Source: Eubacteriales bacterium
GTDB taxonomy: Bacteria > Bacillota > Clostridia > Oscillospirales > JAAYXM01
Length of the DNA stretch: 64,000 bases
Assembly: GCA_045636865.1 (NCBI GenBank)
Contig: JAZTYJ010000004.1
Coordinates: 108,662-172,661 of the forward strand
Direction: 5' to 3'
Below, piece after piece: positions 2,209-55,955 of this stretch. Positions within the stretch are counted from its first letter, which is position 1. The number at the start of each line of letters is the position of its first letter. The translations under genes were made by a program, and so were the position numbers. Under the pieces are notes generated by a model. The model ran no database searches. It was not told where the DNA came from and was given only the letters and a program-made list of their open reading frames with translations.

Positions 2209-4497
2209 ATGGAAAATATGACACAGCTTGATTTTAAAATTAAAGAAATGGCGGCGCGTATCCGCGAGCTTCGAGAGATTGAAGGCCTTTCGGTTGAAGA
2301 GATGGCGGAGAAAACAGGCGTTGAGCTTTCAGAATATCTTCGTTGTGAAAAGGGTGAGCACGACTTAAACTTCGCGTTTATTTACCGTTGTGCGGCAGTT
2401 CTTCGCGTAAACGTAACCGATATTATCGAAGGCTACAGCCCGACTCTTAAATCGTTTACGGTTACGCGTTCAGGTCTCGGTCAGAAGATAGGTCAGGCTC
2501 ACGGTATGACTTACTACAACCTTGCCTATGCGTTTCAGAATCGAATCGCCGAGCCGCTTTACGTCAGGATTTCATATGACGACAGCATAAACGAGTCTGA
2601 TATTGAGCTCACGTCACACGACGGTCAGGAGTGTGACATCATTGTTGAAGGTCATCTTATGGTGCAGATAGGGGAGCACCGCGAGATTCTCGGACCGGGC
2701 GACAGTATCTACTACGACAGTAACACACCCCACGGTATGATTGCGACAAACGGGGCAGACTGCGTTTTCTACGCAATCGTTCTCAATCCGTCAGGTGAGC
2801 CGATTCCGGAGCTTGCACCGACAAAGGCGATTTCTGACACACGCGAAATCAAGAAGGATACAAAAGAACGTATCTATCATAAATATATTGATGTCGAGGA
2901 GAACAAAAACGGAACTCCGACGTCAATTACATTCAAGAACACAGAAAAGTTCAACTTTGCGTTTGACCTTGTTGATGCTCTTGCAGAGCGTGAGCCGGAT
3001 AAGCTTGCGATGCTTCATATTGACATCAACAAAGTAGTAAGACCGTTTACATTTACCGACATCAAGCGCGAGTCTGCAAGATGTGCAAACTACTTCAAGT
3101 CTCTCGGCATCAAGAAGGGCGACCGCGTAATGCTCGTCTTAAAGCGCCATTATCAGTTCTGGTTTGCGATGATCGGTCTTAACAAACTCGGCGCAATCGC
3201 AATTCCCGCTACAAATCAGCTTCAGGTTCACGACTTTGAATACCGCTTCCGGGCGGCAGGTGTAAACACCATCATCTGCACGGCTGACGGTGAAACTGCC
3301 GCACAGGTAGACGAGGCGGCAAAGACGTGTCCCGAGCTTGTAAATAAGCTTATAGTCAACGGTGAGCGCGAAGGATGGAGAAACTTTGACGAAGAGTTCA
3401 AGCTCTTCAGCTCACACTTTGAGAGAAGCGAGGATTCTCCGTGCGGAGATGACCTTCTCCTTATGTTCTTTACATCGGGAACAACGGGATATCCGAAGAT
3501 TGCGGCACACAGCCACAAATATCCGCTCGGTCATTTCCACACAGCAAAATACTGGCACAATGTTGACCCCGACGGTCTCCACTTCACAATCTCCGACACG
3601 GGTTGGGCAAAGTCAATGTGGGGTAAGCTCTACGGTCAATGGCTCTGCGAGGCGGCAACGTTTGTTTACGACTTTGACCGCTTCGATGCAAAGGAAATTC
3701 TTCCGATGTTTGCAGAGCACAAGATAACAACCTTCTGTGCACCTCCGACAATGCTCCGCATGCTTGTTAAAGAAGACATTTCACAGTATGACTTCTCGTC
3801 CGTAAAGCATATGTCAACAGCGGGTGAGGCACTCAACCCCGAGGTTTACAGACAATTTGAAAAGGCAACGGGCCTCCAGATTATTGAAGGCTTCGGTCAG
3901 ACGGAAAGCACGATGATCATCGGTAATATGGTCGGTGCTCCGCATAAGATCGGATCTATGGGTAAGCCTGCTCCGATTTACAAGGTTGAGCTCGTGAACG
4001 AAAAGGGTGAAGAGGTTGCAATCGGTGAGACGGGTGAAATCGTCGTAAATGTAAAAGACGGTATGCCATGCGGTCTCTTTACGGGATACTACCGCGATCA
4101 GGAGAAGACAGACGAAGTCCTCCACGATGGCTACTATCACACGGGCGACACCGCGTGGCGCGATGAAGACGGCTTCTATTGGTACGTCGGACGCGTTGAT
4201 GACGTTATCAAGTCATCGGGATACCGCATCGGTCCGTTTGAAATCGAAAGTGTTATTATGGAGCTTCCGTATGTTCTTGAGTGCGGCGTATCAGCGGCTC
4301 CCGATGAGGTCCGCGGTCAGATAGTAAAGGCAAGTATCGTTCTCACAAAGGGAACTGAACCGACAGAAGAGCTCAAAAAAGAGATTCAGACATACGTCAA
4401 AGAGCACACGGCTCCGTATAAGTATCCGCGACTTGTCGTCTTCCGCGATTCACTTCCGAAGACGGTAAGCGGAAAGATTCAGAGAAATAAACTTTAA
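2209..4497 (+). CDS. XRE-HTH - cupin - AMP-forming acyl-CoA synthetase fusion protein (762 aa)
   Basis: RBS GAAGGAGAG lies 8 nt upstream. The N-terminus is an XRE-type HTH (res ~10-70). A cupin follows (GDSIYYDSNTPHG), then the adenylate-forming core (TSGTTGYPK, GYYHTGD, SGKIQR). Confidence 0.9.
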   Translation: MENMTQLDFKIKEMAARIRELREIEGLSVEEMAEKTGVELSEYLRCEKGEHDLNFAFIYRCAAVLRVNVTDIIEGYSPTLKSFTVTRSGLGQKIGQAHGMTYYNLAYAFQNRIAEPLYVRISYDDSINESDIELTSHDGQECDIIVEGHLMVQIGEHREILGPGDSIYYDSNTPHGMIATNGADCVFYAIVLNPSGEPIPELAPTKAISDTREIKKDTKERIYHKYIDVEENKNGTPTSITFKNTEKFNFAFDLVDALAEREPDKLAMLHIDINKVVRPFTFTDIKRESARCANYFKSLGIKKGDRVMLVLKRHYQFWFAMIGLNKLGAIAIPATNQLQVHDFEYRFRAAGVNTIICTADGETAAQVDEAAKTCPELVNKLIVNGEREGWRNFDEEFKLFSSHFERSEDSPCGDDLLLMFFTSGTTGYPKIAAHSHKYPLGHFHTAKYWHNVDPDGLHFTISDTGWAKSMWGKLYGQWLCEAATFVYDFDRFDAKEILPMFAEHKITTFCAPPTMLRMLVKEDISQYDFSSVKHMSTAGEALNPEVYRQFEKATGLQIIEGFGQTESTMIIGNMVGAPHKIGSMGKPAPIYKVELVNEKGEEVAIGETGEIVVNVKDGMPCGLFTGYYRDQEKTDEVLHDGYYHTGDTAWRDEDGFYWYVGRVDDVIKSSGYRIGPFEIESVIMELPYVLECGVSAAPDEVRGQIVKASIVLTKGTEPTEELKKEIQTYVKEHTAPYKYPRLVVFRDSLPKTVSGKIQRNKL

Positions 4498-4523
4498 TAA
4501 ATTATATAAAGGAGAGAATCAAG

Positions 4524-5591
4524 ATGTATAATTTTCCGGTAACAAAAACACAGAACCCGAAGCCGCATCCGCAGGATGAGTCAAAGCTCGCTTTCGGAAA
4601 GGTATTTACGGACCACATGTTCGTTATGAACTACACCGAAGGTAAGGGCTGGCACGACGGAAGAATTGTTCCTTACGAGAAACTCTCTCTTGACCCGTCA
4701 GCTATGGTCTTCCACTACGGACAGGAAATGTTTGAAGGTCTCAAGGCTTATAAGGGCCGCGACGGTAAGACTCGTCTTTTCAGACCTGATATGAACGCAA
4801 AGCGCACAAACGCTACAAACGAGCGTCTCTGCATTCCGGAGCTTCCGGAGGAGCTTTTTGTTGAAGCTTGTAAGGCAGTTGTAAAGGTTGATGAAGACTG
4901 GATTCCGACAGCTCCGGGCACATCACTCTACATCCGTCCGTTCATCATCGCAACAGACGAATTCCTCGGCGTTGCTCCGTCAAAGACATACCTCTTCATC
5001 ATTATCCTCTCACCGTCAGGTGCATACTACGCAAGTGGTCTTGCTCCGGTTGGTATCTGGATTGAAGATGACTATGTAAGAGCTGTAAAGGGCGGTATGG
5101 GCTTTGCTAAGACAGGCGGCAACTACGCAGCAAGCCTTGCAGCACAGGTTAAGGCACACGACGAAGGATATTCACAGGTTCTCTGGCTTGACGGTGTTGA
5201 AAGAAAGTACATCGAAGAAGTTGGCGCTATGAACATCTTCTTCAAGATTGACGGAAAGATCGTTACTCCGATGCTCAACGGCAGCATTCTTCCGGGTATC
5301 ACAAGAAATTCGGTAATCGAAGTCTGCAAGTCATGGGGATATGAGGTTGAAGAGAGAAGAATCAGCGTTGAAGAGCTTATTGATGCACAGAAGTCAGGAA
5401 AGCTTGAAGAGTGCTTCGGAACAGGTACTGCAGCTGTTATCTCTCCGGTCGGAAAGCTTCGCTATAAGGATGACGTTATGCTCATCAACGGCAACACAAT
5501 CGGCGAAGTCAGCCAGAAGCTCTACGATACCATTACAGGCATCCAGTGGGGCGAATGTGAGGATAAGTTTAATTGGTCAGTAATAGTTTAA
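4524..5591 (+). CDS. ilvE: branched-chain amino acid aminotransferase
   Basis: 355-aa class IV aminotransferase of BCAT type (FHYGQEMFEGLKAY, LYIRPF, GGMGFAKTGGNYA). RBS AAAGGAGAG. Confidence 0.9.
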   Translation: MYNFPVTKTQNPKPHPQDESKLAFGKVFTDHMFVMNYTEGKGWHDGRIVPYEKLSLDPSAMVFHYGQEMFEGLKAYKGRDGKTRLFRPDMNAKRTNATNERLCIPELPEELFVEACKAVVKVDEDWIPTAPGTSLYIRPFIIATDEFLGVAPSKTYLFIIILSPSGAYYASGLAPVGIWIEDDYVRAVKGGMGFAKTGGNYAASLAAQVKAHDEGYSQVLWLDGVERKYIEEVGAMNIFFKIDGKIVTPMLNGSILPGITRNSVIEVCKSWGYEVEERRISVEELIDAQKSGKLEECFGTGTAAVISPVGKLRYKDDVMLINGNTIGEVSQKLYDTITGIQWGECEDKFNWSVIV

Positions 5592-6241
5592 ATAAAAGAA
5601 TAACCCTTTTTTGCGGTCATTACGGCAGCGGAAAAACGAATATTGCAGTAAATTTTGCAATAGAGCTTGCAAAAAGGGGAGAGGCTGTCAGCATAGCCGA
5701 TATTGATATTGTAAACCCGTATTTCAGAACGAAGGACAGTATTGACGAGCTCATAGCGGCAGGAGTAGACGTGGTTGCACTTCCGTTTGCAAACACAAGT
5801 GTCGATCTTCCCGCAATTCCGTCAGAGGTTTACGGTCTCATCCAGATGAGAGACAAGCGCGTTGTAATGGATATCGGCGGTGACGACAGAGGCGCATACG
5901 CGCTCGGCAGGTTTGCGGATAAGATAAAAGAAGAAAACAGCTTTGATATGGTTTTCGTTGTGAATTTCTACCGTCCGCTGACACCCGATGCAGAGTCGGC
6001 TCTCTCAATTATGCGTGAGATAGAAGCGGCGTCAAAGATTCCGTTTTCCTGCATAATCAACAACTCAAACATCGGTGAGGAGACGCGTGCAGACGACATC
6101 AGAAAGACGATTCCGCTTGCAGAGGAGCTCTCGGAATTGTCAGGGCTTCCGGTTGTCGGAGTTTCCGCAAAGAAGGAATTTGAAAGTGAACTTGGGCTTG
6201 AGAGCTTTCTGGCTCTCAACCTTCAGAAAAAAATATTTTAG
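5573..6241 (+). CDS. P-loop NTPase (SIMIBI/G3E-like), function unknown
   Basis: Walker A GHYGSGKT and Walker B VVMDIGGDD. Apparent TTG start overlaps the ilvE 3' end by 19 nt, with GAGG about 10 nt upstream. The start site is uncertain. Confidence 0.6.
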   Translation: MVSNSLNKRITLFCGHYGSGKTNIAVNFAIELAKRGEAVSIADIDIVNPYFRTKDSIDELIAAGVDVVALPFANTSVDLPAIPSEVYGLIQMRDKRVVMDIGGDDRGAYALGRFADKIKEENSFDMVFVVNFYRPLTPDAESALSIMREIEAASKIPFSCIINNSNIGEETRADDIRKTIPLAEELSELSGLPVVGVSAKKEFESELGLESFLALNLQKKIF

Positions 6242-6253
6242 AAGGAGATTGTT

Positions 6254-6460
6254 ATGGCTAAGGTAACATTTGCGTCAGACATATGCAAGGGCTGCGGTCT
6301 TTGCGTAGGTGCATGTCCCAAGGGCATCATCACTCTTGCGACAGATAAGATCAATAAAAAGGGGCACTCTCCTGCAGAAATAACTGATCAGGAAAAGTGT
6401 ATCGGTTGCGCTTTCTGTGCAACAATGTGCCCTGACTGTGTAATTACGGTAGAAAAGTGA
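6254..6460 (+). CDS. 2-oxoacid:ferredoxin oxidoreductase delta subunit (2x[4Fe-4S] ferredoxin-like)
   Basis: 68 aa with two CxxCxxCxxxCP motifs (CKGCGLCVGACP, CIGCAFCATMCP). Confidence 0.85.
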   Translation: MAKVTFASDICKGCGLCVGACPKGIITLATDKINKKGHSPAEITDQEKCIGCAFCATMCPDCVITVEK

Positions 6461-6472
6461 GGTGTGTGAGAA

Positions 6473-7534
6473 ATGGCAGAAAAAGTTTTGATGAAAGGTA
6501 ACGAAGCTATCGCGGAAGCTGCAATTCGTGCAGGTTGCCGCCATTACTTCGGATATCCGATTACTCCGCAGACGGAAGTCGCGGCTTATATGGCAAAGAG
6601 AATGCCGAAAATCGGCGGAACATTCCTTCAGGCAGAAAGTGAAGTTTCCGCAATCAATATGGTATATGGTGTTGCAGGTGCAGGATTCCGTGTTATGACA
6701 TCCTCATCAAGCCCCGGTATATCACTCAAGCAGGAGGGTATCTCCTACATAGCAGGTGCTGACCTTCCGGCACTTATCGTTAACGTTCAGCGCGGAGGCC
6801 CCGGTCTCGGCGGAATCCAGCCGTCTCAGTCTGACTATTTCCAGGCTACAAAGGGCGGCGGTCACGGTGACTATCACCTCATCGTTCTCACTCCCGAATC
6901 CGTTCAGGAAATGGCGGATATGACAGCTTTGGCATTCGACCTTGCCGATAAGTACAGAATGCCGGCAATGCTTCTTTGTGACGGTACAATGGGTCAGATG
7001 ATGGAACCGGTTGAGCTTCCCGAGGAGCACGTAAACGTTATCGAAAAGCCCTGGGCGGTAAACGGCACAAAGGGCGAGCGTGAGCACAACATCATAAACT
7101 CACTCTACTTAAAACCCGAAATTCTCGAGGACAAGAACTTTGAGAGATACGAGAGATATAAGCTCATTGAAGAAACTGAAGCAAGACACGAAAGCTTTAT
7201 GATGGACGATGCAGAAATCTGCGTTGCAGCATTCGGTATTGCGGCACGCGTTGCAAAGAACGCAGTTGTTGCAGCCCGCAAGGAAGGCATCAAGGTCGGT
7301 ATGATCCGTCCGCTCACGGTATGGCCGTTCCCGAAGAAGGCATTTGCAGAAGCTGCAAAGCAGGTTAAGTCATTCATCAGCGTTGAGCTTTCAATGGGAC
7401 AGATGATTGAAGATGTTGCACTTGCAACAGAATGCAAAAAGCCAGTTCACCTCTGCAACCGTTCAGGCGGTATGATTCCGACACCTGAACAGGTTCTTGA
7501 GATGATCAGAGAAATCAACGGAGGTAACAGATAA
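6473..7534 (+). CDS. 2-oxoacid:ferredoxin oxidoreductase alpha subunit
   Basis: The N-terminus GNEAIAEAAIRAGCRHYFGYPITPQTE is typical of POR/KOR/VOR alpha subunits. 353 aa. Confidence 0.85.
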   Translation: MAEKVLMKGNEAIAEAAIRAGCRHYFGYPITPQTEVAAYMAKRMPKIGGTFLQAESEVSAINMVYGVAGAGFRVMTSSSSPGISLKQEGISYIAGADLPALIVNVQRGGPGLGGIQPSQSDYFQATKGGGHGDYHLIVLTPESVQEMADMTALAFDLADKYRMPAMLLCDGTMGQMMEPVELPEEHVNVIEKPWAVNGTKGEREHNIINSLYLKPEILEDKNFERYERYKLIEETEARHESFMMDDAEICVAAFGIAARVAKNAVVAARKEGIKVGMIRPLTVWPFPKKAFAEAAKQVKSFISVELSMGQMIEDVALATECKKPVHLCNRSGGMIPTPEQVLEMIREINGGNR

Positions 7535-36307: not shown

Positions 36308-37444
36308 ATGAAAGTAAAAGTAGAAAAAGCGTATAACAACGGTGCAGTGTTGAATGATACCGTAATCGAAATCGAAAACGGAAGATTTTCGGGATTTTCG
36401 TCGGGAGAAGATTTTGATCTTGACCTTGGTGCATATAAGGTCTTTCCCGGTTTTATAGATATGCACACTCACGGCGGATACTCGATAGAGGCAGTTTCGG
36501 CATCATTTGATGAGCTTGACACTCTCTCGAAGTATTATGCGTCGTGCGGCGCGGCAGAGTTCTGCGCGACAACCGTTACGGAGTCGATAGATAATCTTGT
36601 CAAGGCAGAAAAAAGGATAGTAAAGCGAATGGCCGCCGGCACAAGCGGCGCTCACATCGCAGGCATCTATCTTGAGGGGCCGTTCTTGTCGCACGCATTT
36701 CGCGGAGCACACGAGGAAAGTCTCTTGAAGACTCCGACAAAGGAGGATATAAAGCGTCTTATTGATGCAGGCGAAGGAAACTTGCGTGTCGTTTCGATAG
36801 CTCCCGAAATTGAGGGTGCGGAAGACGCGATAAAATACCTTACGGAAAACGGAATAAAGGTCTCACTCGGACATTCGGGCGCGACGGAAGAAGAGGCAAA
36901 CCGCGGCTTTTCTGCCGGCGGAAGTATTGCGATACATACATATAATGCGATGAAGGGCTTGAATCACAGAGAGCCGGGAATGCTCGGTGCAAGTCTCGCG
37001 AGAGACGACGTCTTTGGCGAAATTATATGCGATTTTCTCCACGTTGCCCCCACACCGATAAAAATCGCCCTTCGCTGCAAGGGAAAGGACAAGATCGTTT
37101 TCATAACCGACTCGATTGTTACGGCAGGACTTCCTGACGGAAACTATATGTCGGGCGCACTTCCCGTCGTCGTAAAGGACGGTGTTGCAAGAGCTGAAAA
37201 CGGAGCACTTGCAGGCTCATCAATCGCAATAAACCGCGCTTTTGCAAATGTTGTAAAAACTATCGGAGTGCCGGTTGAGGATGCAATGCTCGGAGTTACG
37301 AAGAATCCGGCAGAGGCACTCGGTCTTTATGACGAAATCGGTTCAATTGAGAAGGGGAAACGCGCGCACCTTACCGTGCTTGATGATAATTTCAATGTCG
37401 TTATGACAATCGTAGACGGAAAGGTTGTTTATAAAAACGTATAA
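36308..37444 (+). CDS. nagA: N-acetylglucosamine-6-phosphate deacetylase
   Basis: FPGFIDMHTHGG, LEGPF, GHS and HTYNAM motifs. Confidence 0.9.
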   Translation: MKVKVEKAYNNGAVLNDTVIEIENGRFSGFSSGEDFDLDLGAYKVFPGFIDMHTHGGYSIEAVSASFDELDTLSKYYASCGAAEFCATTVTESIDNLVKAEKRIVKRMAAGTSGAHIAGIYLEGPFLSHAFRGAHEESLLKTPTKEDIKRLIDAGEGNLRVVSIAPEIEGAEDAIKYLTENGIKVSLGHSGATEEEANRGFSAGGSIAIHTYNAMKGLNHREPGMLGASLARDDVFGEIICDFLHVAPTPIKIALRCKGKDKIVFITDSIVTAGLPDGNYMSGALPVVVKDGVARAENGALAGSSIAINRAFANVVKTIGVPVEDAMLGVTKNPAEALGLYDEIGSIEKGKRAHLTVLDDNFNVVMTIVDGKVVYKNV

Positions 37445-46508: not shown

Positions 46509-46585
46509 GCGCTGTTAGCTCAGCTGGATAGAGCGTGTGGCTACGGACCACAAGGTCGGGGATTCGAATTCTCCACAGCGCGCCA
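46509..46585 (+). tRNA. tRNA-Arg (anticodon ACG), CCA encoded
   Basis: Manual cloverleaf. The 7-bp acceptor is GCGCUGU/ACAGCGC. The D-arm is GCUC/GAGC. The anticodon stem is UGUGG/CCACA with loop CUACGGA. The T-arm is GGGGA-UUCGAAU-UCUCC. The discriminator is G, followed by CCA. Confidence 0.95.
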
Positions 46586-46616
46586 GTCGGTTTCCTTTCG
46601 GAAACCGACTTTTTTT
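46586..46616 (+). terminator. intrinsic terminator after tRNA-Arg
   Basis: gtcggtttcc-tttc-ggaaaccgac followed by TTTTTTT. Confidence 0.85.
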
Positions 46617-46639
46617 ATTATCGAAAATCACGAAAAGCA

Positions 46640-46674
46640 TTGACAATTGCGGTGTTTTTATTATAGAATATAAT
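46640..46674 (+). promoter_or_regulatory. thrS promoter region
   Basis: TTGACA at 46640-46645 with TAGAAT 18 nt downstream. A TATAAT at 46669-46674 is too far from this -35. Confidence 0.5.
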
Positions 46675-46740
46675 GTGAATAATGGCGTATTGTGTGCATT
46701 GTTCAAACAAAAGATTTTATATCCGAAAGAGGGTTTTGAT

Positions 46741-48504
46741 ATGAAAGTAATTTACAGCAACGGTACGGTTGGTGAGTGTCCGCAGGAAGAAGAGCTTCAC
46801 GTTATCCGCCATTCAGCAGCACATATAATGGCTCAGGCGATTTCAAGGCTCTATCCGAACGCGCATTTTGCTTATGGTCCGGCAACAGAAAAAGGTTTTT
46901 ACTATGACGTAGACCTTGGCGACGAAAAGCTTTCTGATGAAGATCTTTTAAAGATTGAGAAGGAAATGAAAAAGATTGTCAAGGAGAATCTTCCGATAAA
47001 GCCGTATGTTCTCCCGAGAGACGAAGCTATCGCTCTTATGGAGAGCCGCGGTGAGAAGTATAAGGTTGAGCATATCGGCGATCTTCCGGAAGATGCAGAA
47101 ATAAGCTTCTATCAGCAGGGCGACTATATCGATATGTGCGTAGGTCCGCACCTCTGTTACACAAAGGCACTCAAGGCGTTCAAGATTACCGACCAGTCAG
47201 GTGCTTACTGGAAGAATGACAAAAACAACAAGATGCTCACACGTGTCAAGGGTATTGCTTTTGCAACACAGCAGGAGCTTGAAGAGTACTTAAAGCTCCT
47301 TGAAGAAGCAGAGCGTCGCGACCATCGCCGCATAGGTAAGGAAATGGGCCTCTTTATGTTTGCTGACGAGGCTCCGGGATTCCCGTTCTTCCTTCCGAAG
47401 GGTATGACGCTCAAGAATACACTCATCGAATACTGGAGAGAGCTCCACACACGCAATAACTATGTTGAGGTTTCAACTCCGCTCATTATGAACCGCAAGC
47501 TCTGGGAAACAAGCGGACATTGGGATCACTACAAGGATAATATGTATTCAACTACCATCGATGAAGAAACCTTCTGCGTAAAGCCGATGAACTGCCCGGG
47601 TGGAGTTATGGTTTACCGTTCAACTCCGCACAGCTACCGTGAGCTTCCGATTCGCATGGGCGAGCTTGGTCTTGTTCATCGCCACGAGCTTCGCGGTGCA
47701 CTCCACGGTCTTTTCCGCGTCCGTTGCTTTACTCAGGACGATGCGCACATCTTTATGCGCCGTGAGCAGATCACAGACGAAATTATCGCAGTTGTAGGGC
47801 TCATAAACGAAGTTTATGAGAAATTCGGCTTTAAGTATTCTGTCGAGCTTTCAACAAGACCCGAAGACAGTATGGGTTCAGATGCAGACTGGGAGGCAGC
47901 GACAAACGGTCTCCGCGGTGCGCTTGAGCAGCTCGGACTTCCGTATACAATCAACGAGGGTGACGGCGCGTTCTACGGTCCGAAGATCGACTTCCACCTT
48001 GAAGACTCACTCGGAAGAACATGGCAGTGCGGAACGATTCAGCTTGACTTCCAGATGCCGCTTAACTTTGAGCTTGATTATATCGACGAAAACGGCGAGA
48101 AGCAGCGTCCGATTATGATTCACCGCGTATGCTTCGGTTCAATTGAGCGTTTTATCGGTATCATCACCGAGCACTTTGCAGGTAAGTATCCTGTATGGCT
48201 TGCTCCGACACAGGCAAAGGTTCTTCTTGTTTCGGAGAAGAGTGCGGAGTACGGCAAAGAGGTTTATGAGGCTCTCCGTGCAGCGGGTGTAAGAGTTGAG
48301 ATGGACAACAGAAACGAAAAGATCGGATATATGATCCGCGAGGCACAGACTGTCGGTCGTGTACCGTATATGGTAATCATCGGCCAGCAGGAGGTTGAGA
48401 ACAAAACTGTTTCTATCCGCTACCGCGATACTGCGGCAAACGAAACAATGACACTTGATGAGTTTATCGCAAAGATAACAAAAGAAATCAAGGAAAGAGC
48501 ATAA
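46741..48504 (+). CDS. thrS: threonine--tRNA ligase lacking the N-terminal TGS domain
   Basis: Start ATG at 46741 with RBS AAAGAGGG. The editing domain HSAAH and CVGPH are present, as are the class II core and the anticodon-binding domain. 587 aa. Confidence 0.95.
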   Translation: MKVIYSNGTVGECPQEEELHVIRHSAAHIMAQAISRLYPNAHFAYGPATEKGFYYDVDLGDEKLSDEDLLKIEKEMKKIVKENLPIKPYVLPRDEAIALMESRGEKYKVEHIGDLPEDAEISFYQQGDYIDMCVGPHLCYTKALKAFKITDQSGAYWKNDKNNKMLTRVKGIAFATQQELEEYLKLLEEAERRDHRRIGKEMGLFMFADEAPGFPFFLPKGMTLKNTLIEYWRELHTRNNYVEVSTPLIMNRKLWETSGHWDHYKDNMYSTTIDEETFCVKPMNCPGGVMVYRSTPHSYRELPIRMGELGLVHRHELRGALHGLFRVRCFTQDDAHIFMRREQITDEIIAVVGLINEVYEKFGFKYSVELSTRPEDSMGSDADWEAATNGLRGALEQLGLPYTINEGDGAFYGPKIDFHLEDSLGRTWQCGTIQLDFQMPLNFELDYIDENGEKQRPIMIHRVCFGSIERFIGIITEHFAGKYPVWLAPTQAKVLLVSEKSAEYGKEVYEALRAAGVRVEMDNRNEKIGYMIREAQTVGRVPYMVIIGQQEVENKTVSIRYRDTAANETMTLDEFIAKITKEIKERA

Positions 48505-49675: not shown

Positions 49676-50668
49676 ATGAAAAAAATTACCATAAAAGAAA
49701 TAGCAAAGATGGCGGGCGTTTCCGTTACGGCGGTCTCGTTTGTATTGAATGAAAAACCGGGTGTAAGCGAAGAGACACGAAAAATTGTCAAAGATATAAT
49801 CGAAAAGACCGGATTTCGCCCCAGCATCAATTCAAAAAGGCTTCTTCTCAACAAGAGCTTCAACATAAGCCTTATTGTAAATCAGAATTCGTCTCCGTTT
49901 GAAGACCTTTTTTATTTTGAGATAATGAACGGTATTCTGAATCAGAGCACGAAATACGGCTACAACATTGTTATAAACAAGCCTAAAAAAGGCGACCTTC
50001 CCGACAACGTTTATTCAGGCGATGCCGACGGAATGATTTTTATGCAGGATATTCCGCTTTCGATGAAGAAGAAGGCAACTGCAAGCGGAGTGCCGTTTGT
50101 TGTCGTCGATGCTCACGGAGGAGATATGTCGCAGATATCGGTGAGTGCGGACTATACTCAGGCGGCATATATGGCAACATCCTACCTCATTGAAAAAGGA
50201 CACAGGAAAATTGCAATGCTTTCGTCGAAAGTTGTCCCTGATTTTTACAAGCAGACACTTCAGGGATATACCAACGCGCTTTTGGAAAATTCTATCGCTG
50301 TGCTTCCCGAATTCATAGAGAATACGGCAGAAAATGAAGAGACTGCATACAACGTCGCAAAGGAAATTCTCTCGAAGGAGGAGCGTCCGAGCGCAATTCT
50401 CTGTACGATTGACAGTTTTGCGGTCGGTGCGATGCGATGCGCAAAGGATATGGGATTATCCGTGCCGGAGGATGTTTCGTTTATGGGTATTGATGATATT
50501 CTCCTCGCAAGATATATTGAGCCGAAGCTCACGACCATAAAGATAGACAAGACCGAAATGGGTGCAATTGCCATGGATCTTCTCCGCCGTATGATCAGCG
50601 GAAAGCCTGTTAAGAGCTATTCTATCCCGATGCAGCTTGTTGAGCGCGATTCGGTTAGAAAAATGTAA
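49676..50668 (+). CDS. LacI family transcriptional regulator
   Basis: N-terminal HTH ITIKEIAKMAGVSVTAVSFVLN plus a sugar-binding fold. Confidence 0.9.
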   Translation: MKKITIKEIAKMAGVSVTAVSFVLNEKPGVSEETRKIVKDIIEKTGFRPSINSKRLLLNKSFNISLIVNQNSSPFEDLFYFEIMNGILNQSTKYGYNIVINKPKKGDLPDNVYSGDADGMIFMQDIPLSMKKKATASGVPFVVVDAHGGDMSQISVSADYTQAAYMATSYLIEKGHRKIAMLSSKVVPDFYKQTLQGYTNALLENSIAVLPEFIENTAENEETAYNVAKEILSKEERPSAILCTIDSFAVGAMRCAKDMGLSVPEDVSFMGIDDILLARYIEPKLTTIKIDKTEMGAIAMDLLRRMISGKPVKSYSIPMQLVERDSVRKM

Positions 50669-50768
50669 GATAAAGAGGATACGGACACGTATCCGCTTTT
50701 TTGTCGATAAAATGTATTTACTTATTGCAGGACGTATGATATAATCTCTGTAATTTCGAGAGGAGAAG

Positions 50769-51521
50769 ATGATGATGTACAATGACAAGAAGTTTATAAA
50801 TAAAGATACTGTGTCTTTTTATGCAAATACAAATGAAGAATTTATTAAAAAGCCGGTCAAGGGAATTATTGCAGAGTTTCCGGGGCTTGACGGCGGCTCG
50901 TGCATCGGTGGAACGCTTCCGTGTGCAACATACGACACCGAGTGGACGCGCCGTTTTGCAGAAAAGGGTATTGTCGTCGCATACCTTTTCCCGGGACCGT
51001 GGAGCTGGGGACGTAAGGGCGTTTGCCGCATAGCAGATGCAGTTGTTGCGGCTATAGCGGATAAATACAGCCTCGGTGAAGATTTTCCGCTTGCAGTTTG
51101 TGGCGGCAGTATGGGAGGCGTCGGAACTGTGATGTTTTCCTCACAGACAAGGTTTAAGCTTCGCGCTGCGGCCATTGCTTGCCCGTGTGTTGATGCAAGC
51201 GACAGACTCACTTGCCATCCGGAATTTCCGAGAACTTATATCAGCGCGATAGCAGGGCTTGATATGGAGTTTGAAGACGGTCTTCGCGAAATTTCGCCAA
51301 TCCATTGCATAGATAAGATGCCTGACATCCCGTACTTCATATGCAGTGATAGAGAGGACGAAGTTTTCCCTGAAGAGCAGTGCGATATGTATGTGGAAAA
51401 ACTCAAAGGTGCAGGCAAAAGTGTAGAGTATTACAGACAACCCGGGATGAAGCATGGCGAATTCTTGCCTGAAGTAAGAGAAAAGTTACATGTATTTCTT
51501 GAAGAGGCGATTCTTGGATAA
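50769..51521 (+). CDS. alpha/beta hydrolase (esterase/peptidase S9-like)
   Basis: Nucleophile elbow GGSMGG. There are a downstream acidic residue (SDREDEV) and a His (MKHGEF) candidate triad. Confidence 0.7.
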   Translation: MMMYNDKKFINKDTVSFYANTNEEFIKKPVKGIIAEFPGLDGGSCIGGTLPCATYDTEWTRRFAEKGIVVAYLFPGPWSWGRKGVCRIADAVVAAIADKYSLGEDFPLAVCGGSMGGVGTVMFSSQTRFKLRAAAIACPCVDASDRLTCHPEFPRTYISAIAGLDMEFEDGLREISPIHCIDKMPDIPYFICSDREDEVFPEEQCDMYVEKLKGAGKSVEYYRQPGMKHGEFLPEVREKLHVFLEEAILG

Positions 51522-51530
51522 GAAAACAAA

Positions 51531-51560
51531 AAAGGCTGAACGGAAATCCGTTCAGCCTTT
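51531..51560. terminator. bidirectional intrinsic terminator
   Basis: 13-bp stem aaaggctgaacgg-aaat-ccgttcagccttt between convergent genes. Confidence 0.75.
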
Positions 51561-51570
51561 AAAATTTCTT

Positions 51571-52287
51571 TTACGGTAAGAGTCTGTGGGGAGTCATGCG
51601 GTAAGCATCGTTGCAGCGAACAAATGCCTCTGCATACTTAACGCCACACTGCATACCTCTGTATTTTGCCGTGATGGTCATATCCTCCGTGAAGGTATCC
51701 TCTGCTGAATAACCTGCATAGTTATCTGCCATCCATGCCTGCTGACTTTCGTGGCAAAGAAACATTTTCTTCTTTGTCTCGAAGTGATCGGTAATGTCGA
51801 CATAATCGGTCGGAACAAAGCCCATACCCTTTGCCGGTTCAAAGTAATAAATTACGGGGAGAGTCGGGCAGGGGGGTTCTTCTGTTTCGATTTTTGCGAT
51901 CGGAATCATAACCTGAATGTCGTTGATGATTTTGCTTGTAAGCATATGGTCGGGGTTATAGTCCTGCGGATTATGAGTGAGGATAACGTCTGCTTTGCAA
52001 TGTCTTACGAGGTTGATGAAGTTTATGCGGACTGAAAGGTCCTCATAGAAAAGCTCATCATCGTAATCAAGGCAGATGTATTCTGCGCCGATGATAGCTG
52101 CACTCTTTGCGGCCTCGCGCTTGCGGATTGCGCCGATCTCATCCTTCGGAAGAGTTGCAGAACCGATGTTGCCGTTTGTAGCTGTTGCGATGAAGACCTT
52201 ATGACCTTCCGCGGCATATTTTGCGAGTGTTCCTGCGCAGTTGATTTCGATATCATCGGGATGTGCGCCGATAGCCAATATATTCAT
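51571..52287 (-). CDS. PIG-L (LmbE-like) family N-acetyl-sugar deacetylase
   Basis: AIGAHPDDIE zinc motif at the N-terminus and HxDH-like HNPQDYNPDH. Confidence 0.85.
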   Translation of the reverse strand: MNILAIGAHPDDIEINCAGTLAKYAAEGHKVFIATATNGNIGSATLPKDEIGAIRKREAAKSAAIIGAEYICLDYDDELFYEDLSVRINFINLVRHCKADVILTHNPQDYNPDHMLTSKIINDIQVMIPIAKIETEEPPCPTLPVIYYFEPAKGMGFVPTDYVDITDHFETKKKMFLCHESQQAWMADNYAGYSAEDTFTEDMTITAKYRGMQCGVKYAEAFVRCNDAYRMTPHRLLP

Positions 52288-52310
52288 ATGAGTCGCTCCT
52301 TTATAAAATA

Positions 52311-52334
52311 GAGGGTGGGTTGCAACCCACCCTC
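52311..52334 (-). terminator. strong GC hairpin between the XI-like and PIG-L genes (attenuating or processing terminator)
   Basis: gagggtgggt-tgca-acccaccctc is a 10-bp stem. On the minus strand it is followed by UAUUUUAUAAAGGAG, which carries the next RBS. Confidence 0.55.
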
Positions 52335-52376
52335 AAGTTTTGAACTTGTTAAATTAAATTCCGTAAAGCTATGGGA

Positions 52377-53411
52377 TTAGTTAAGACCCATAAGAAGCTC
52401 CATAACGTAGAGCTCAAGCTTTTCGTAGTCGCGCTCTGCAACACACTTTGCCTGGTAGTCATAGTCAAACTTCTCAACCTTAGCTTCAAGAGCCTTAGCG
52501 ATCTTTAAGCTGTTGATGAGGTGCTGATAGCTGCCTTCCTGCTTCTGAGTTCTCATGACCTTGACGTCAAGACCGATGTACTCACCGTTCTTGCCAAAAT
52601 CTGTTTCAGCGAGAACCTTCATCTGGTTGAATGCTGCGCGGAGGTTTTCAACACCAAAGCTCTTGTCCTGGACAAACTTCATGCCGTTCTGGTCGTTGAG
52701 GTGAACGCCCCAGAGCTTGCCCATAGCTGATGCAAAACCGATTTCGCTTGCAGGATCAAGACCTGCGAGCATTGCGTGAGCTGACTCAAGGAGACCGCCA
52801 ACACGTGACGGATCCTTTGTTGCAGCAGAGATAGCCATACAATGTCCCATTGTCGGGCAAACGCTGCGGTCGATCGGCTCATTCGGCTTTGTTTCGATGA
52901 GAACCTTGATGTCCTTATCGTAGTCGAGCATCTTGTTGATAGCGTCGATGAGGCGCTTTGTTGATTCTACCGGGCTCTTGCTTTCGTAGCAGAGTGTGCC
53001 TTCGCGAGCGAGCCAGAGAACGATTTTATCACATCCGAGAACCTTTGCGATGTCGATTGAGCGGTAAGCTCTCCACATAGCATATTCTCTGTCTTCTGCG
53101 CTGTTTGAGCAGAAGCCACCGTCTGTTGTGTGCGGATCAAACCAGAGACGCGGAGCAACGAATTCAGCAGCGAGATCATACTTATCAAGAAGAGCCTTTA
53201 CTTTCTTAGCTTCTTCGATGATTTCTGCTTCTGTGTAGTTGTTGATGTTCGGAACAGCGTCGTCATCATGGAACTGGATAGCATCAAAACCGATTTCCTT
53301 AAAGGTTTTGATTTTTTCCTCAAACGGGATAGTGTCGCGGACTGCAGGACCGTAAGCGTCTGCACCTTCGTGAACGTTCCACGGACCGACTGAATACTTG
53401 AATCTTGACAT
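52377..53411 (-). CDS. xylose-isomerase-superfamily TIM-barrel sugar isomerase, non-canonical metal motif
   Basis: Alignable with class I xylose isomerase from memory (FHDDD, ETKPNEP, ESAH). It has VHLND...VQD where XI has HIDLN...DQD. RBS CAGGAGGG. Confidence 0.75.
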   Translation of the reverse strand: MSRFKYSVGPWNVHEGADAYGPAVRDTIPFEEKIKTFKEIGFDAIQFHDDDAVPNINNYTEAEIIEEAKKVKALLDKYDLAAEFVAPRLWFDPHTTDGGFCSNSAEDREYAMWRAYRSIDIAKVLGCDKIVLWLAREGTLCYESKSPVESTKRLIDAINKMLDYDKDIKVLIETKPNEPIDRSVCPTMGHCMAISAATKDPSRVGGLLESAHAMLAGLDPASEIGFASAMGKLWGVHLNDQNGMKFVQDKSFGVENLRAAFNQMKVLAETDFGKNGEYIGLDVKVMRTQKQEGSYQHLINSLKIAKALEAKVEKFDYDYQAKCVAERDYEKLELYVMELLMGLN

Positions 53412-53439
53412 AATAAAACCCTCCTGAATATATTATATT

Positions 53440-53543
53440 TTTGTTTTTTTCTCAAACGGAATTGTTTCACGGACTGCAGGGCTGAAAGTGTCTGCGCCTT
53501 CGTGAAAATTCCGGGGACCGACTGAATACTTGAATTTTGATAT
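53440..53543 (-). pseudogene. decayed duplicate of the first ~35 codons of the XI-like gene (start codon ATG->ATA)
   Basis: 53451-53543 aligns without indels to 53319-53411 at a 132-bp offset, with about 15 mismatches in about 95 nt. It reads ISKFKYSVGPRNFHEGADTFSPAVRETIPFEKKTKI* against MSRFKYSVGPWNVHEGADAYGPAVRDTIPFEEKIKT. Confidence 0.6.
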
Positions 53544-54757
53544 TAGAGGCTGAGAATGATGTTTCTGAGGTTGTCTGCAACCTGCTTGATTTCCTCTTCT
53601 GTTGAGAGGATGTTGATGCCGTAGCCTGATCCGAGACCCTTATCAACAACACCGACGCTGATATTGACTGCACGGTCAAGGATTGAGTCTGTCTGCGGGA
53701 GCATATGCTTTGCATATTCTCTGTCGTTTACGTTCATTGTGTTAGCCGGCATAAGCTTGTTGAGAACCTGCTCCATATTGTTGTAAACGTGCCAGCCTGA
53801 ATATGCGATCGGTCTGCCGCCTGTCTTTTCGCAGAACTTTTCAGCAAGCTCTTTTGTGTCAAAGAGGATTGTGAGAAGTGTTGCGCATTCGCCTTCGTCG
53901 TTGATCTTTCTAAAGGAGATGTGCGGAAGGTCCTTGAGCATATCCTTAAGCATTGCTTTTTTAGCTCTGAGTGTTGCGAGGATTTCATCGAGCTTGCGTG
54001 TCTGAGCAAGAGCAACAGCACCTGTGAGCTCGTTCATTCTCATGTTCATACCGATTATGCTGCGGTTACCGATTTCAACGCCTGTACGGTTGGGCTTGTG
54101 ACCCTGATCGTGATAACCGAAAGCTCTCTCGTAGAGGTTTTCGTCGTTTGTGATAACAGCGCCGCCGTCACCTGTTGAGATTGTCTTGAAAACGTTGAGT
54201 GAGAAAGCACCGATGTTGCCGTATGTACCGCAACGCTTACCCTTGTAGCTTGCGCCGACAGCCTGGCAGCAGTCTTCAAGAACGTAGAGGTTGTGCTTCT
54301 TTGCGATAGCCATGATAGCGTCCATATCGCAGGGGTTGCCGAGCATATGTACCGGAAGGATAGCCTTTGTCTTCGGTGTGATAAGCTCTTCGATCTTTGT
54401 CGGGTCGATGGTGAGAGATTCGTCGATCTCTGCAAGAACCGGAATTGCACCGGAGAGCATAATTGTTGAGATTGATGCGATGAAAGTGTAACCCGGAACG
54501 ATTACTTCATCACCTGCACCGATTCCGAGAGCTGCAAGAGCTGCAAGGAGTGAGCAGGTTCCGCTTGTTGTAGCAACAGCGTACTTTGCGCCCATAGTCT
54601 TCTTGAGTGCTTCTTCGAAATCTACGACTTTGTGTGTATAGCCCTCTGCTGAAGCATCACCGTAACGGAAAAGGTATCTGCCTTCAAGGACTTCCATAAC
54701 TTCTTTTCTTTCTTCTTCACCGAATACGAATGATCCGGGTCCGCCTGATCTTGCCAT
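53543..54757 (-). CDS. DegT/DnrJ/EryC1/StrS family PLP-dependent sugar aminotransferase
   Basis: ATTSGTCSL, PGYTFIAS, and a Lys in FSLNVFKTISTGDGGAV. RBS AGGAGGATGA. Confidence 0.9.
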   Translation of the reverse strand: MARSGGPGSFVFGEEERKEVMEVLEGRYLFRYGDASAEGYTHKVVDFEEALKKTMGAKYAVATTSGTCSLLAALAALGIGAGDEVIVPGYTFIASISTIMLSGAIPVLAEIDESLTIDPTKIEELITPKTKAILPVHMLGNPCDMDAIMAIAKKHNLYVLEDCCQAVGASYKGKRCGTYGNIGAFSLNVFKTISTGDGGAVITNDENLYERAFGYHDQGHKPNRTGVEIGNRSIIGMNMRMNELTGAVALAQTRKLDEILATLRAKKAMLKDMLKDLPHISFRKINDEGECATLLTILFDTKELAEKFCEKTGGRPIAYSGWHVYNNMEQVLNKLMPANTMNVNDREYAKHMLPQTDSILDRAVNISVGVVDKGLGSGYGINILSTEEEIKQVADNLRNIILSL

Positions 54758-54793
54758 AGTATCATCCTCCTGATTTTACTTATTAATAATATA

Positions 54794-54822
54794 ATTATAC
54801 TAAATCGTTTTAGAGTTGTCAA
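54794..54822 (-). promoter_or_regulatory. perfect consensus promoter TTGACA-17 nt-TATAAT for the aminotransferase operon
   Basis: On the minus strand the -35 is at 54817-54822 and the -10 at 54794-54799. Confidence 0.75.
54800..54813. promoter_or_regulatory. LacI-type operator candidate CTAAATCGTTTTAG inside the promoter spacer
   Basis: 14-bp palindrome with 12/14 symmetric positions and a central CG. A related core AAAACGATTT lies at 54870-54879. Confidence 0.45.
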
Positions 54823-54876
54823 TATCCAATAATAAAATATAAAAAATTTTAAATCGGAAAGCTATCTGAAAACGAT

Positions 54877-55809
54877 TTATTCAACATAGTTTTTGACGAA
54901 GATATCCGCGTCTTCATCCGTTTCGGGGAAAGCGACATCGGTGTACATACACCAGCATTCGCTGTGGCAAACCTCATCACCGGGGAATAGCTTGGAGAGA
55001 ATGCCGATGCTTTCGCACTCGAGCATATCCTTTGCGGTAAAGGTCTCAAAGTTGCAGTTTCTGTCGGGGTGCGGCATGTCTTCGTTGGTATCAAAGTATT
55101 TCACAAAAACATTGCCACGGTTAAAGTATGCCGCCCAGCCGTGCTGACTGAGGGTTCCGAACTTGAATTTTTCGGGAACCGTTGCATCGTGTGAAAGGCG
55201 GATATATTTATCGCCCCACGAAACTCTCGGATCCATCATTTTTGTGTGCCGCCACAGAACAAAGTGGCGGTTGTCAAGCAGGGTTTCTTCGTGTGTTGCA
55301 ACGGGGATAAGCTCGCATCCGCCCGGAGCAAGAACCGTAAGTGCCCACGGTGCAAGAGTTATGGGAGCGCTCCCCGTATTCTTGATTTTATGGACGATGT
55401 GGAAGCAGTTCTCTTCCGGCATCGTCATTTCAAAAGAAAAAGAAAGACCGCGCTCTGCCTGTTCGGGAGGTGTCAGAATAACACCGTTTTCAATTATCTC
55501 ATAAGAGACGGGTGCGTTGTCGGGATAGTACGTTTCGGGAAACTGCTCGGGACTTGTCCACATGCGGTGTCCGCCTCTGATATGCCAAATGCCCTTGTCC
55601 TTGCCGAACATCTCGATGCTTTCTTTTTCAAAAGCAAGCCCGTTTACATTATCTTCGATGTCTTCAAAAAACATATTCTCACGACCGATGGGAGAAAACC
55701 TTATAACCCTCGGACCGAAATCGAGTGTTACAAACGCCTCGTTTATGCCGTCGCAAAGGCGAAGGCATCTGCCCCAGGGAGAATATGTTACTTCTTTGAT
55801 ATTGATCAT
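54877..55809 (-). CDS. hypothetical protein (possibly mutarotase-like beta-sandwich)
   Basis: ATG at 55809 with AGAAGG upstream. The family was not recognised with confidence. An own promoter TTGAAT-17-TATAAT lies upstream. Confidence 0.5.
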   Translation of the reverse strand: MINIKEVTYSPWGRCLRLCDGINEAFVTLDFGPRVIRFSPIGRENMFFEDIEDNVNGLAFEKESIEMFGKDKGIWHIRGGHRMWTSPEQFPETYYPDNAPVSYEIIENGVILTPPEQAERGLSFSFEMTMPEENCFHIVHKIKNTGSAPITLAPWALTVLAPGGCELIPVATHEETLLDNRHFVLWRHTKMMDPRVSWGDKYIRLSHDATVPEKFKFGTLSQHGWAAYFNRGNVFVKYFDTNEDMPHPDRNCNFETFTAKDMLECESIGILSKLFPGDEVCHSECWCMYTDVAFPETDEDADIFVKNYVE

Positions 55810-55955
55810 GGAATAAACCTTCTTTCGGATTTGCAATCATATAAAAATTATAACAAATTTCCACAAAATATTCAATAGATAAAAATCATGCTTGCAAGAT
55901 GACATAATTACATATATAATGTAACGTGGAGCATATTTAAGGACGTGTAAAAATA

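Follow-up and report, generated by a model that had tools for sequence, protein, structure and literature searches.

A LacI-linked operon of DegT aminotransferase, xylose-isomerase-like protein and PIG-L deacetylase in gut Clostridia, a candidate catabolic unit for a free N-acetylated amino sugar

In textbook amino-sugar catabolism, nitrogen is removed from sugar 6-phosphates by deaminases. Here we describe an operon that may follow a different chemistry, located in a 64,000-nucleotide stretch (the window, by which we mean this whole stretch) of contig JAZTYJ010000004.1 from a Eubacteriales bacterium. On its minus strand the operon encodes a mutarotase-like protein, a DegT-family aminotransferase, a xylose-isomerase-like (XI-like) protein and a PIG-L-family deacetylase, and genes for a LacI-family protein and an alpha/beta-hydrolase converge on it from the plus strand. 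With a confidence a little above even, we favor the reading that this operon is a LacI-repressed catabolic unit for a free, non-nucleotide-activated N-acetylated amino sugar. Its overall logic would be that of NagA/NagB and AgaA/AgaS, namely to deacetylate, remove the nitrogen and obtain a ketose. However, those systems act on 6-phosphates with an amidohydrolase-fold deacetylase and an ammonia-releasing deaminase/isomerase, whereas the operon enzymes belong to unrelated families and the nitrogen would be conserved by transamination.

Several other described systems resemble the operon in part. In the KdnA/KdnB system of Shewanella oneidensis (Kdo8N), KdnA transaminates a free, non-nucleotide sugar carbonyl generated by a dehydrogenase, and KdnA (5k8b) is the closest solved relative of the operon DegT protein over nearly its full length. 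KdnA is biosynthetic, however, serves an eight-carbon ulosonic acid and has an Fe-alcohol dehydrogenase as its partner, whereas the operon has deacetylase, XI-like and mutarotase-like partners and a sugar repressor, and its aminotransferase reaction would likely run from amine to carbonyl. NtdC/NtdA (kanosamine), WbpB/WbpE and GnnA/GnnB couple a Gfo/Idh/MocA protein (GFO) to a DegT enzyme through a keto-sugar intermediate, and the same GFO and DegT pair stands in front of the XI-like gene in four sister loci (L008, L010, L017 and L117). These three systems are nevertheless biosynthetic, use sugar phosphates or uridine diphosphate (UDP) sugars and lack a deacetylase, an aldose-ketose isomerase and LacI control, while the window operon lacks the dehydrogenase.

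The remaining comparisons concern the other two enzymes. The operon isomerase is colinear with class I XylA over about 300 residues and keeps most of the catalytic motifs, but its family has a His at Asp245, a shorter C terminus and no xylulokinase linkage, and the window protein has a Val at Asp255. The operon PIG-L shares fold and metal motifs with BshB1 (6p2t), MshB and the archaeal diacetylchitobiose deacetylases (3we7, 8bgn). The archaeal chitin pathway sets the precedent for a PIG-L enzyme that opens amino-sugar catabolism on an unphosphorylated sugar, but there the amine is removed after phosphorylation and by a deaminase, not a transaminase. Levoglucosan and 3-keto-glycoside pathways (LgdA, DgpA) also place relatives of the GFO linked to the XI-like gene, which is nearest to levoglucosan dehydrogenase, beside XI-fold TIM barrels; this GFO nevertheless scores far below the cut-off of 650, the XI-like protein is a relative of true xylose isomerase (XI) and not an LgdB/DgpC-type lyase, and those pathways have neither aminotransferase nor deacetylase. 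Judged by its sequences, the module appears to belong to none of these known systems, with which it has only broad Pfam families in common. Searches of the literature likewise yielded no account of a DegT-based catabolic route or of this gene set, in line with the original prediction, made from the DNA letters alone, which had found no described pathway to match.

The features of the locus are as follows (window coordinates).

49676-50668, plus strand: LacI-family repressor gene (Pfam LacI, Peripla_BP_1 and Peripla_BP_3)
50769-51521, plus strand: alpha/beta-hydrolase gene (weak Peptidase_S9/Abhydrolase_3 match)
51531-51560, both strands: bidirectional terminator-like hairpin with a 13-bp stem and T-runs on both strands
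51571-52287, minus strand: PIG-L/LmbE-family N-deacetylase gene, the last of the operon (Pfam PIG-L, 95.8 bits)
52311-52334, minus strand: intra-operon GC hairpin and U-rich tract between the XI-like and PIG-L genes
52377-53411, minus strand: XI-like gene, 344 amino acids (Pfam AP_endonuc_2, PF01261, 73.8 bits)
52671-52673, minus strand: codon 247 of the XI-like gene (GTC, Val), at the position of Streptomyces XI Asp255
53412-53545, minus strand: DegT-XI spacer with a decayed copy of the XI gene start (tblastn)
53543-54757, minus strand: DegT/DnrJ/EryC1/StrS aminotransferase gene (Pfam PF01041, 285.2 bits)
54794-54822, minus strand: DegT promoter TTGACA-17-TATAAT, exact sigma-70 consensus (12/12)
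54800-54813, minus strand: 14-bp operator CTAAAACGATTTAG in the DegT promoter spacer (palindrome comparison)
54877-55809, minus strand: mutarotase-like gene, 310 amino acids, ATG at 55809 (TTE1925/DUF4380 group, galactose-mutarotase fold predicted)
55847-55875, minus strand: promoter-like site of the mutarotase-like gene, TTGAAT-17-TATAAT with extended TG (10/12 match)

The six genes, the perfect promoter and the intra-operon hairpin of the original prediction were all recovered at these positions, its LacI, DegT, XI-superfamily and PIG-L assignments agreed with the Pfam and NCBIfam profiles, and the promoter that it gave to the first gene corresponds to the extended-TG site at 55875-55847.

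The DegT protein bears on the state of the substrate. It is a clear DegT-family member (PF01041 cut-off 19.8) with the pyridoxal phosphate lysine motif NVFKTIS, and the lysine in NVFKTISTGDGG aligns with KdnA SVKTITCGEGG. The match to 5k8b, the KdnA Kdo8N transaminase, reaches 288 bits over residues 7-368, and the next-best structures are perosamine synthases at about 193 bits. Scores against the nucleotide-sugar aminotransferase equivalogs LegC, PseC, WecE, ArnB and DesI all fell below the cut-offs, the best being the LegC family (204.8, cut-off 420), PseC (196.2, cut-off 423.5) and the WecE type (180, cut-off 375). KdnA acts on a free sugar and not on a nucleotide sugar. A free sugar is therefore favored for the operon, since its DegT is nearest to KdnA (288 bits versus about 193 or less for nucleotide-sugar enzymes). 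No KdnB-type gene was found in the window, and an Fe-ADH_2 gene lies upstream in two comparison loci only (L015 and L016; L001-L119 are the labels of the comparison loci, of which L113, an ENA contig, and L114, a Logan contig, are conspecific assemblies about 99% identical to the window).

The deacetylase carries the metal motifs AHPDD and HNPQDYNPDH in its translation and exceeds the PIG-L/LmbE cut-off (PF02585, 28.2) by a wide measure. Its nearest structures are BshB1 6p2t, LmbE-related 2ixd and the diacetylchitobiose deacetylases. A bacillithiol role was considered and rejected, because the BshB1 and BshB2 models gave 125.3 bits (cut-off 182.5) and 48.8 bits (cut-off 195), respectively, and the genome, which is 91% complete, contained no BshC match and only BshA-like matches below the cut-off.

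Membership of the XI-like TIM barrel family is equally clear for the isomerase (PF01261 cut-off 31.1), and its alignment with Streptomyces XI is colinear from residue 5 to 302 at about 140 bits; the protein is about 45 residues shorter, at the C terminus. The XI motifs His54/Asp57 (FHDDD), Glu181/Lys183 (ETKPNEP), Glu217/His220 (ESAH) and Asp287/Lys289 (LDVK) are kept, and so is Asp255/Asp257 (DQD) in the family. The full two-metal XylA ligand set (Glu181, Glu217, Asp245, Asp287; His220, Asp255, Asp257) is incomplete, since the Asp245 position is a His in all 73 family members, a residue that Pseudomonas stutzeri L-rhamnose isomerase probably shares at the corresponding place. The xylA_Arthro model gave 164.7 bits, below its cut-off of 447. 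Neither a xylulokinase nor a xylose transporter lies beside the XI-like gene in the 80 loci mapped, and FGGY kinases occur only in separate neighboring units of L014/L016 and L072. A true xylose isomerase was rejected on these three grounds, the score, the ligand set and the missing linkage. In a protein atlas, the XI-like protein matched only clusters named putative xylose isomerase or TIM barrel. We found 216 relatives in species-representative genomes. Identity among the best 80 of the 216 is 74-96%, and their sources are Clostridia, Paenibacillus, a spirochaete and Lucifera; Paenibacillus oralis, Claveliimonas monacensis and Lucifera butyrica are carriers of the family that have been cultured.

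The window copy of this enzyme carries a private change. Residue 247 is Val in the window protein and Asp in all 72 other family members (HLNDQNG.K[FY]D[QE]DK versus ...KFVQDK), and it aligns with the catalytic-metal ligand Asp255 of Streptomyces XI. D247V is the only private change of the window protein at an invariant column. The conspecific L113 and L114, two independent assemblies, both have GAC (Asp) at codon 247, with all other differences in the gene synonymous, and no other assembly on record has the exact Val247 protein. Val247 is thus either a strain-specific, probably disabling mutation or an assembly error. Upstream of the gene, the start of XI, about 31 codons long, recurs in frame but decayed in the DegT-XI spacer (tblastn, 71% identity over residues 2-36). 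L113 has this partial copy with a few differences, and the ~40-nucleotide spacers of L001 and L003 lack it. In L005 and L014, the XI open reading frame is extended upstream by 27-38 codons, and this extension may be a relic related to the decayed copy.

The first gene of the operon had been described as a beta-sandwich protein of unknown family. The beta-sandwich stands, while profile and model together now give the product a family. It scored 268.3 bits against NF052227 (TTE1925 mutarotase), below the equivalog cut-off of 550, and had no relative by sequence in the PDB. An AlphaFold model built from eight homologues (pLDDT 84.8, pTM 0.86) matched Bacillus subtilis GalM (4bze/3mwx, E 4e-11, TM-score about 0.59), then YeaD and other aldose 1-epimerases. 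The model thus assigns the product to the galactose-mutarotase-fold proteins, in the TTE1925/DUF4380 group. True TTE1925 members (over 566 bits) occur in 4 of 301 genomes and in other contexts, a transketolase or CUT2 ABC operon, which give no clue to the substrate. In L001-L003, an orthologue of the mutarotase-like protein itself (63-70% identity) is encoded upstream of DegT, and L008 has a 40% homologue on the far side of LacI.

A partner with a mutarotase fold favors a reducing sugar over an aminocyclitol, and so the first half of the earlier suggestion of an amino sugar or amino-cyclitol is preferred. In the alternative reading, the substrate would be an aminocyclitol or a glycoside of N-acetylglucosamine (GlcNAc) alpha-linked to inositol, as in glycosylphosphatidylinositol (GPI), plant glycosyl inositol phosphoryl ceramide (GIPC) or mycothiol-type head groups. 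The GlcNAc glycoside, a classical kind of PIG-L substrate, would be deacetylated by PIG-L, DegT would be a transaminase of the inosamine/inosose type, the XI-like protein an inosose isomerase and the GFO an inositol dehydrogenase. The PIG-L relatives of known substrate do act on GlcNAc glycosides, and both DegT and a paralogue of it match scyllo-inosose and 2-deoxy-scyllo-inosose transaminases at 150-177 bits. The linked GFO likewise matches a scyllo-inositol dehydrogenase as well as IolG (117 bits), a TIM barrel linked to the module resembles IolE, and ceramidase-like amidases are frequent in the genome. We still consider this explanation unlikely: a partner with a mutarotase fold indicates a hemiacetal sugar, the two-metal residues of aldose-ketose isomerases are retained in the XI-like protein, which is far closer to XI than to IolI/IolE, KdnA is clearly the better DegT match, and the loci with the DegT-XI-PIG-L arrangement (type A) have no other iol genes.

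The linkage of the core genes is conserved across species. The aminotransferase, isomerase, deacetylase and LacI genes are found together in over 15 loci, which belong to several families of Clostridia. DegT orthologues (84-93% identity) adjoin the XI-like gene in L001-L003, L005, L006, L008, L010, L014-L017, L074 and L119, and PIG-L follows it directly in L001-L003, L005, L008, L009, L014, L016, L018 and L119. A 380-amino-acid GFO gene lies between DegT and XI in L006, L008, L010, L017, L050 and L074, so that the enzyme set named by the original prediction (DegT, XI, PIG-L) holds and the sister loci add a GFO step to it. This GFO is nearest to levoglucosan dehydrogenase (NF052479, 188 bits with a cut-off of 650; 6a3f, 122 bits), and the window genome has no orthologue of it (best 33% identity). 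The order DegT-GFO-XI-PIG-L is found in L008 and in the distant L117 (XI 73%, DegT 61%). Among 399 sampled Clostridia genomes, 6 contain DegT orthologues, spread over five other families; L117, L118 and L119 are loci of this sample. In addition, in about ten loci the same XI has another aminotransferase as its partner, a paralogue of DegT (43% identity) that is likewise nearest to KdnA. With them stand a GFO, a ceramidase-like amidase, an AraC regulator and a TIM barrel of the IolE type. Because the amidase of this paralogous module is non-homologous, the combination of amidase, transaminase, dehydrogenase and isomerase was assembled on two occasions.

Alternatively, the genes might be neighbors without a common pathway, the isomerase serving a neutral or acidic sugar and DegT with PIG-L something else. 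The XI-like family occurs without DegT or amidase in 45 of 73 loci, and L118 has DegT-PIG-L without XI, as such a reading would expect. We regard it as quite improbable, since gene order, the single promoter/operator and short spacers have been kept though other genes diverged strongly, the same XI has an independent link to the paralogous second lineage of DegT, and DegT and XI are codon-optimized in parallel.

The surroundings of the module bear on whether it builds or degrades a sugar. The window operon is flanked by housekeeping genes (PyrR, ThrS, Band-7, BacA, a DEDDh exonuclease, an E2-like acyltransferase, RadC, ClpP, TrmK, NIF3 and NFACT). Pfam and NCBIfam scans of the neighbors found no glycosyltransferase, nucleotidyltransferase or sugar transporter within about 10 kb, as had been claimed from the letters alone. 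The flanks of the sister loci hold RecG, FakA, SecA, PrfB, MurC (L005) and restriction-modification genes; an ABC importer (L050), an MFS transporter with a PTE-family protein (L016) and a GH4 enzyme (L008) are linked occasionally. Two neighbors in L050, of 434 and 903 amino acids, had no PDB match by sequence. No glycan-assembly or antibiotic genes were found in the flanks of the module loci. The core with its LacI gene thus recurs among housekeeping genes, and none of the loci examined lies inside a polysaccharide or antibiotic cluster, the finding that would have spoken against catabolism.

Several observations on these surroundings stand apart. Window ThrS (46537-48504) is only 59-60% identical to that of L001/L002, while the adjoining PyrR is 90-94% and XI, DegT and PIG-L are 92-96% identical; either different ThrS paralogues are being compared or the sugar genes and PyrR are unusually conserved. 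Beside LacI in L014 (10749-15027) and L016 (11229-15507) lie DeoR-controlled TIM-like, SIS-domain, UPF0047 and FGGY kinase genes, which could be a downstream ketose-phosphate branch or an unrelated neighbor. In L117 (100-3756, minus strand), a 1218-amino-acid protein directly after PIG-L is heparinase II/III-like by language-model similarity (0.91, one locus) and has a weak homologue in the window genome (C16:190801-191841, 24% over 370 amino acids); this likeness is a lead only.

If the module made or salvaged an unusual amino sugar, destined for the cell's own envelope or for a secondary metabolite, the same enzymes would have other roles: the isomerase would provide the aldose or keto-sugar that DegT aminates, and PIG-L would act as an editor of an N-acetylated intermediate. 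Most characterized DegT enzymes, KdnA included, are indeed biosynthetic, GFO and DegT pairs make amino sugars in WbpB/WbpE and NtdC/NtdA, and the operon has no transporter and sits among housekeeping flanks with some envelope genes (MurC in L005, BacA in the window). We nevertheless hold this explanation to be distinctly unlikely. No glycosyltransferase, nucleotidyltransferase, acetyltransferase or flippase was present in any of more than 17 loci, and it is not obvious what a deacetylase would do in biosynthesis when no acetyltransferase accompanies it. The patchy distribution over unrelated families (the 6 of 399 genomes given above) also speaks against it, and so does the LacI/AraC control, with an operator placed within a consensus promoter, as is typically seen in inducible catabolism.

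This control region was compared across the loci. The TTGACA-17-TATAAT site at 54822-54794 on the minus strand is the sole 12/12 match in 8 kb, in a region where 23 promoter-like sites were observed versus 13.0 +/- 4.6 in shuffles. A perfect CTAAAACGTTTTAG palindrome, or one that is one base off, occupies the DegT promoter spacer of ten other loci, representing ten species (L001-L003, L008, L010, L014, L016, L017, L050 and L074), in all of which consensus or near-consensus -35 and -10 elements enclose the 14-bp palindrome; the window's own version is CTAAAACGATTTAG. L010, L017, L050 and L074 have a second operator copy just after the -10. The adjacent LacI protein combines an HTH_LacI domain with a periplasmic-binding-protein-like domain, and the palindromic operator with its central CG lies near the target promoter. 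Orthologues of this LacI protein (58-81% identity) lie beside the module in eight loci (L001, L002, L008-L010, L014, L016 and L017). Because the genome has only two LacI-family genes, the adjacent one is the obvious candidate repressor, and probably the regulator, of the DegT promoter.

A search of the genome for further operators returned only one-mismatch sites, at three places, and the AAACGTTT core is common to many LacI-type operators, a caveat on these matches. The sites lie at C2:14445-19298 (L107), in front of genes for two large solute-binding proteins that are paralogues of each other and adjoin a ceramidase-like gene; at C4:237369 (L108), upstream of a KduI/IolB-fusion and SDR pair; and at C12:913 (L110), on a contig of 1.5 kb. 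They may mark regulon members, with the C2 solute-binding proteins as transporter candidates, or may belong to the other LacI/CcpA-type protein. In L001, PIG-L and LacI are separated by an inserted, complete restriction-modification fusion gene of the MmeI type (4146-6908, minus strand), and the presence of this gene in one species indicates that the LacI-operon junction tolerates insertions.

The intra-operon hairpin (52334-52311) consists of a 10-bp stem, in which 7 pairs are G-C, and a loop of 4 nucleotides, and TATTTTAT follows it. Its stem is identical in L001-L003, with different loops, while L005 and L009 have unrelated terminator-like hairpins at the XI-PIG-L junction and L008, L016 and L018 have none. 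The element is likely a partial terminator or an RNA stabilizer. The bidirectional terminator at the end of the unit is common to the convergent PIG-L and hydrolase genes.

The three-enzyme core (DegT, XI and PIG-L) is under strong purifying selection. Compared with L113, DegT and PIG-L each show 6 nucleotide and no amino acid differences and the XI-like gene shows 8 and 1; for the mutarotase-like gene the numbers are 16 and 8, a weaker constraint than in the core enzymes. The hydrolase differs by 54 nucleotides and 12 amino acids. No homologue of it adjoins the module in any other species, only in the conspecific assemblies (L113), and so the esterase, which had been counted as part of the locus, is probably a neighbor outside the conserved unit.

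Codon usage of the core is of the high-expression type. On the main axis of this genome, XI ranks at 0.98, DegT at 0.96 and PIG-L at 0.86, followed by the mutarotase-like gene at 0.56 and LacI at 0.28; reference genes are enolase (0.999), GAPDH (0.998), PFOR (0.99) and GroEL (within 0.98-0.999). This points to very high expression of DegT and XI upon induction. It also helps to weigh the idea that the operon modifies or degrades an aminoglycoside-like or amine-bearing xenobiotic or antibiotic for detoxification. PIG-L enzymes of the 2'-N-acetylparomamine deacetylase type occur in aminoglycoside pathways, and the DegT protein matches 2c7t and 5w70, representatives of 2-deoxy-scyllo-inosose and 6'-aminotransferase types of such pathways. 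But glycolytic-level codon usage argues for a bulk nutrient, no resistance-type acetyl-, phospho- or nucleotidyltransferase or efflux gene is linked, and the XI-like and mutarotase-like partners fit monosaccharide metabolism. We judge detoxification to be very improbable.

Returning to catabolism of a free N-acetylated amino sugar, we propose the following sequence. PIG-L would first remove the N-acetyl group, and the KdnA-like DegT would then pass the freed amine to a 2-oxo acid, giving a keto- or aldehydo-sugar and an amino acid. In the sister loci, the levoglucosan-dehydrogenase-like GFO would reduce that carbonyl; in the window genome this third step would be absent or supplied by one of 16 Gfo/Idh/MocA paralogues. 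The two-metal XI relative would turn the resulting aldose into a ketose for entry into central metabolism, and the mutarotase-like protein would speed the interconversion of anomers. The repressor would sit on the palindrome within the promoter and be released by the sugar or an intermediate. The gene families, their conserved linkage and operator, the purifying selection and the codon usage of the high-expression type are observed, and from these we infer the catabolic direction, the order of the steps, the free state of the substrate and its identity; the housekeeping flanks, the likeness to KdnA and the conserved operator speak for the catabolism or salvage that had been suggested for the locus, and D247V tells against it.

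Other points weigh on the same side as D247V, an exchange at an invariant metal ligand through which the pathway may be impaired in this strain or assembly. In this genome, the operon has neither a transporter nor a downstream kinase linked to it. A canonical GlcNAc-6-phosphate route coexists with it: a NagA gene (GlcNAc-6-phosphate deacetylase; 280 bits, above the cut-off) lies at window positions 36308-37444, 12 kb from the operon, and two NagA paralogues (on contig C6) and two NagB-like genes lie elsewhere in the genome. With this NagA/NagB-type route present, GlcNAc is not an obvious substrate. If the amine were at C2, the isomerase step would be chemically redundant; we therefore lean toward another position or an unusual sugar. 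KdnA is biosynthetic and DegT enzymes are reversible, so that family membership gives no direction. Finally, the 45 loci in which the XI-like family occurs without DegT or amidase imply that the XI substrate is not intrinsically an amino-sugar product.

The other contexts of the XI-like family, in which no aminotransferase is present, give a lead on the kind of sugar. Eleven loci (among them L029, L036, L041, L042, L045, L048, L053 and L060) combine it with GH28-like beta-helix proteins and an AraC regulator. In L037, L039, L040 and L054 it is accompanied by an HpcH/GarL-like aldolase and a 2-hydroxyacid dehydrogenase, and in L065, L071-L073, L075, L076, L079 and L080 by a long PfkB kinase (best model IolC) and a class II aldolase (of a family including IolJ). 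In this last group XI stands where IolB stands beside IolC and IolJ, and once the gene lies beside a member of the mannitol dehydrogenase family (UxaB/UxuB type). The XI identity to the window protein ranges from 83-87% down to 74-76% across the three contexts. A sulfoquinovose (sulfo-EMP-like) reading of the XI-PfkB-aldolase loci was dropped when no GH31-type match was found in the few loci looked at, and a 728-amino-acid open reading frame beside XI in L076 had no Pfam match. Together with the likeness to KdnA, these contexts and the heparinase-like gene of L117 hint, as a lead only, at acidic (uronic or ulosonic) or deoxy sugars, with XI in an IolB/KduI-type place. An acidic (uronic- or ulosonic-type) or deoxy amino sugar is accordingly our guess for the operon substrate.

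The source genome (1.65 Mb in 26 contigs, 91% complete, about 1,500 genes) is that of a Gram-positive-type Clostridia bacterium. Near-identical genes on record come from metagenome-assembled genomes labeled Clostridia, Eubacteriales or Oscillospiraceae, mostly from ruminant and other animal guts. The genome holds 7 DegT, 16 Gfo/Idh/MocA and 6 ceramidase-like genes and many AraC regulators, with only the 2 LacI-family genes, an unusual investment for about 1,500 genes. Several of them lie in DegT-GFO-AraC groupings (examples at C1:57628-62797, C16:80791-87874 and C18:30148-34956). The numbers of DegT, GFO and ceramidase-like genes in 1.65 Mb suggest that such modules are central to the life of the organism.

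If the proposed reading is true, deacetylation followed by transamination of a free sugar would be a chemistry different from the textbook route, with the nitrogen kept as an amino acid. It would give a function to a very conserved and widespread family that is now annotated as TIM barrel protein or xylose isomerase. The locus offers experimental handles in its four small soluble enzymes, its defined operator and repressor, and a natural Asp/Val pair at a catalytic metal ligand; the ligand of the repressor would name the substrate. More tentatively, and with somewhat less than even confidence, a non-phosphorylative, transaminase-initiated route (deacylase, KdnA-like DegT, optional ketoreductase, XI-type isomerase) may serve one lineage of gut Clostridia with small genomes as a main pathway for carbon and nitrogen, and not as a side activity. 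The XI family may represent a new aldose-ketose isomerase class, whose substrates could be acidic or deoxy sugars. Such a pathway could account for the ability of uncultured gut and rumen Clostridia to use rare N-acyl amino sugars from the glycans of microbes, fungi or plants.

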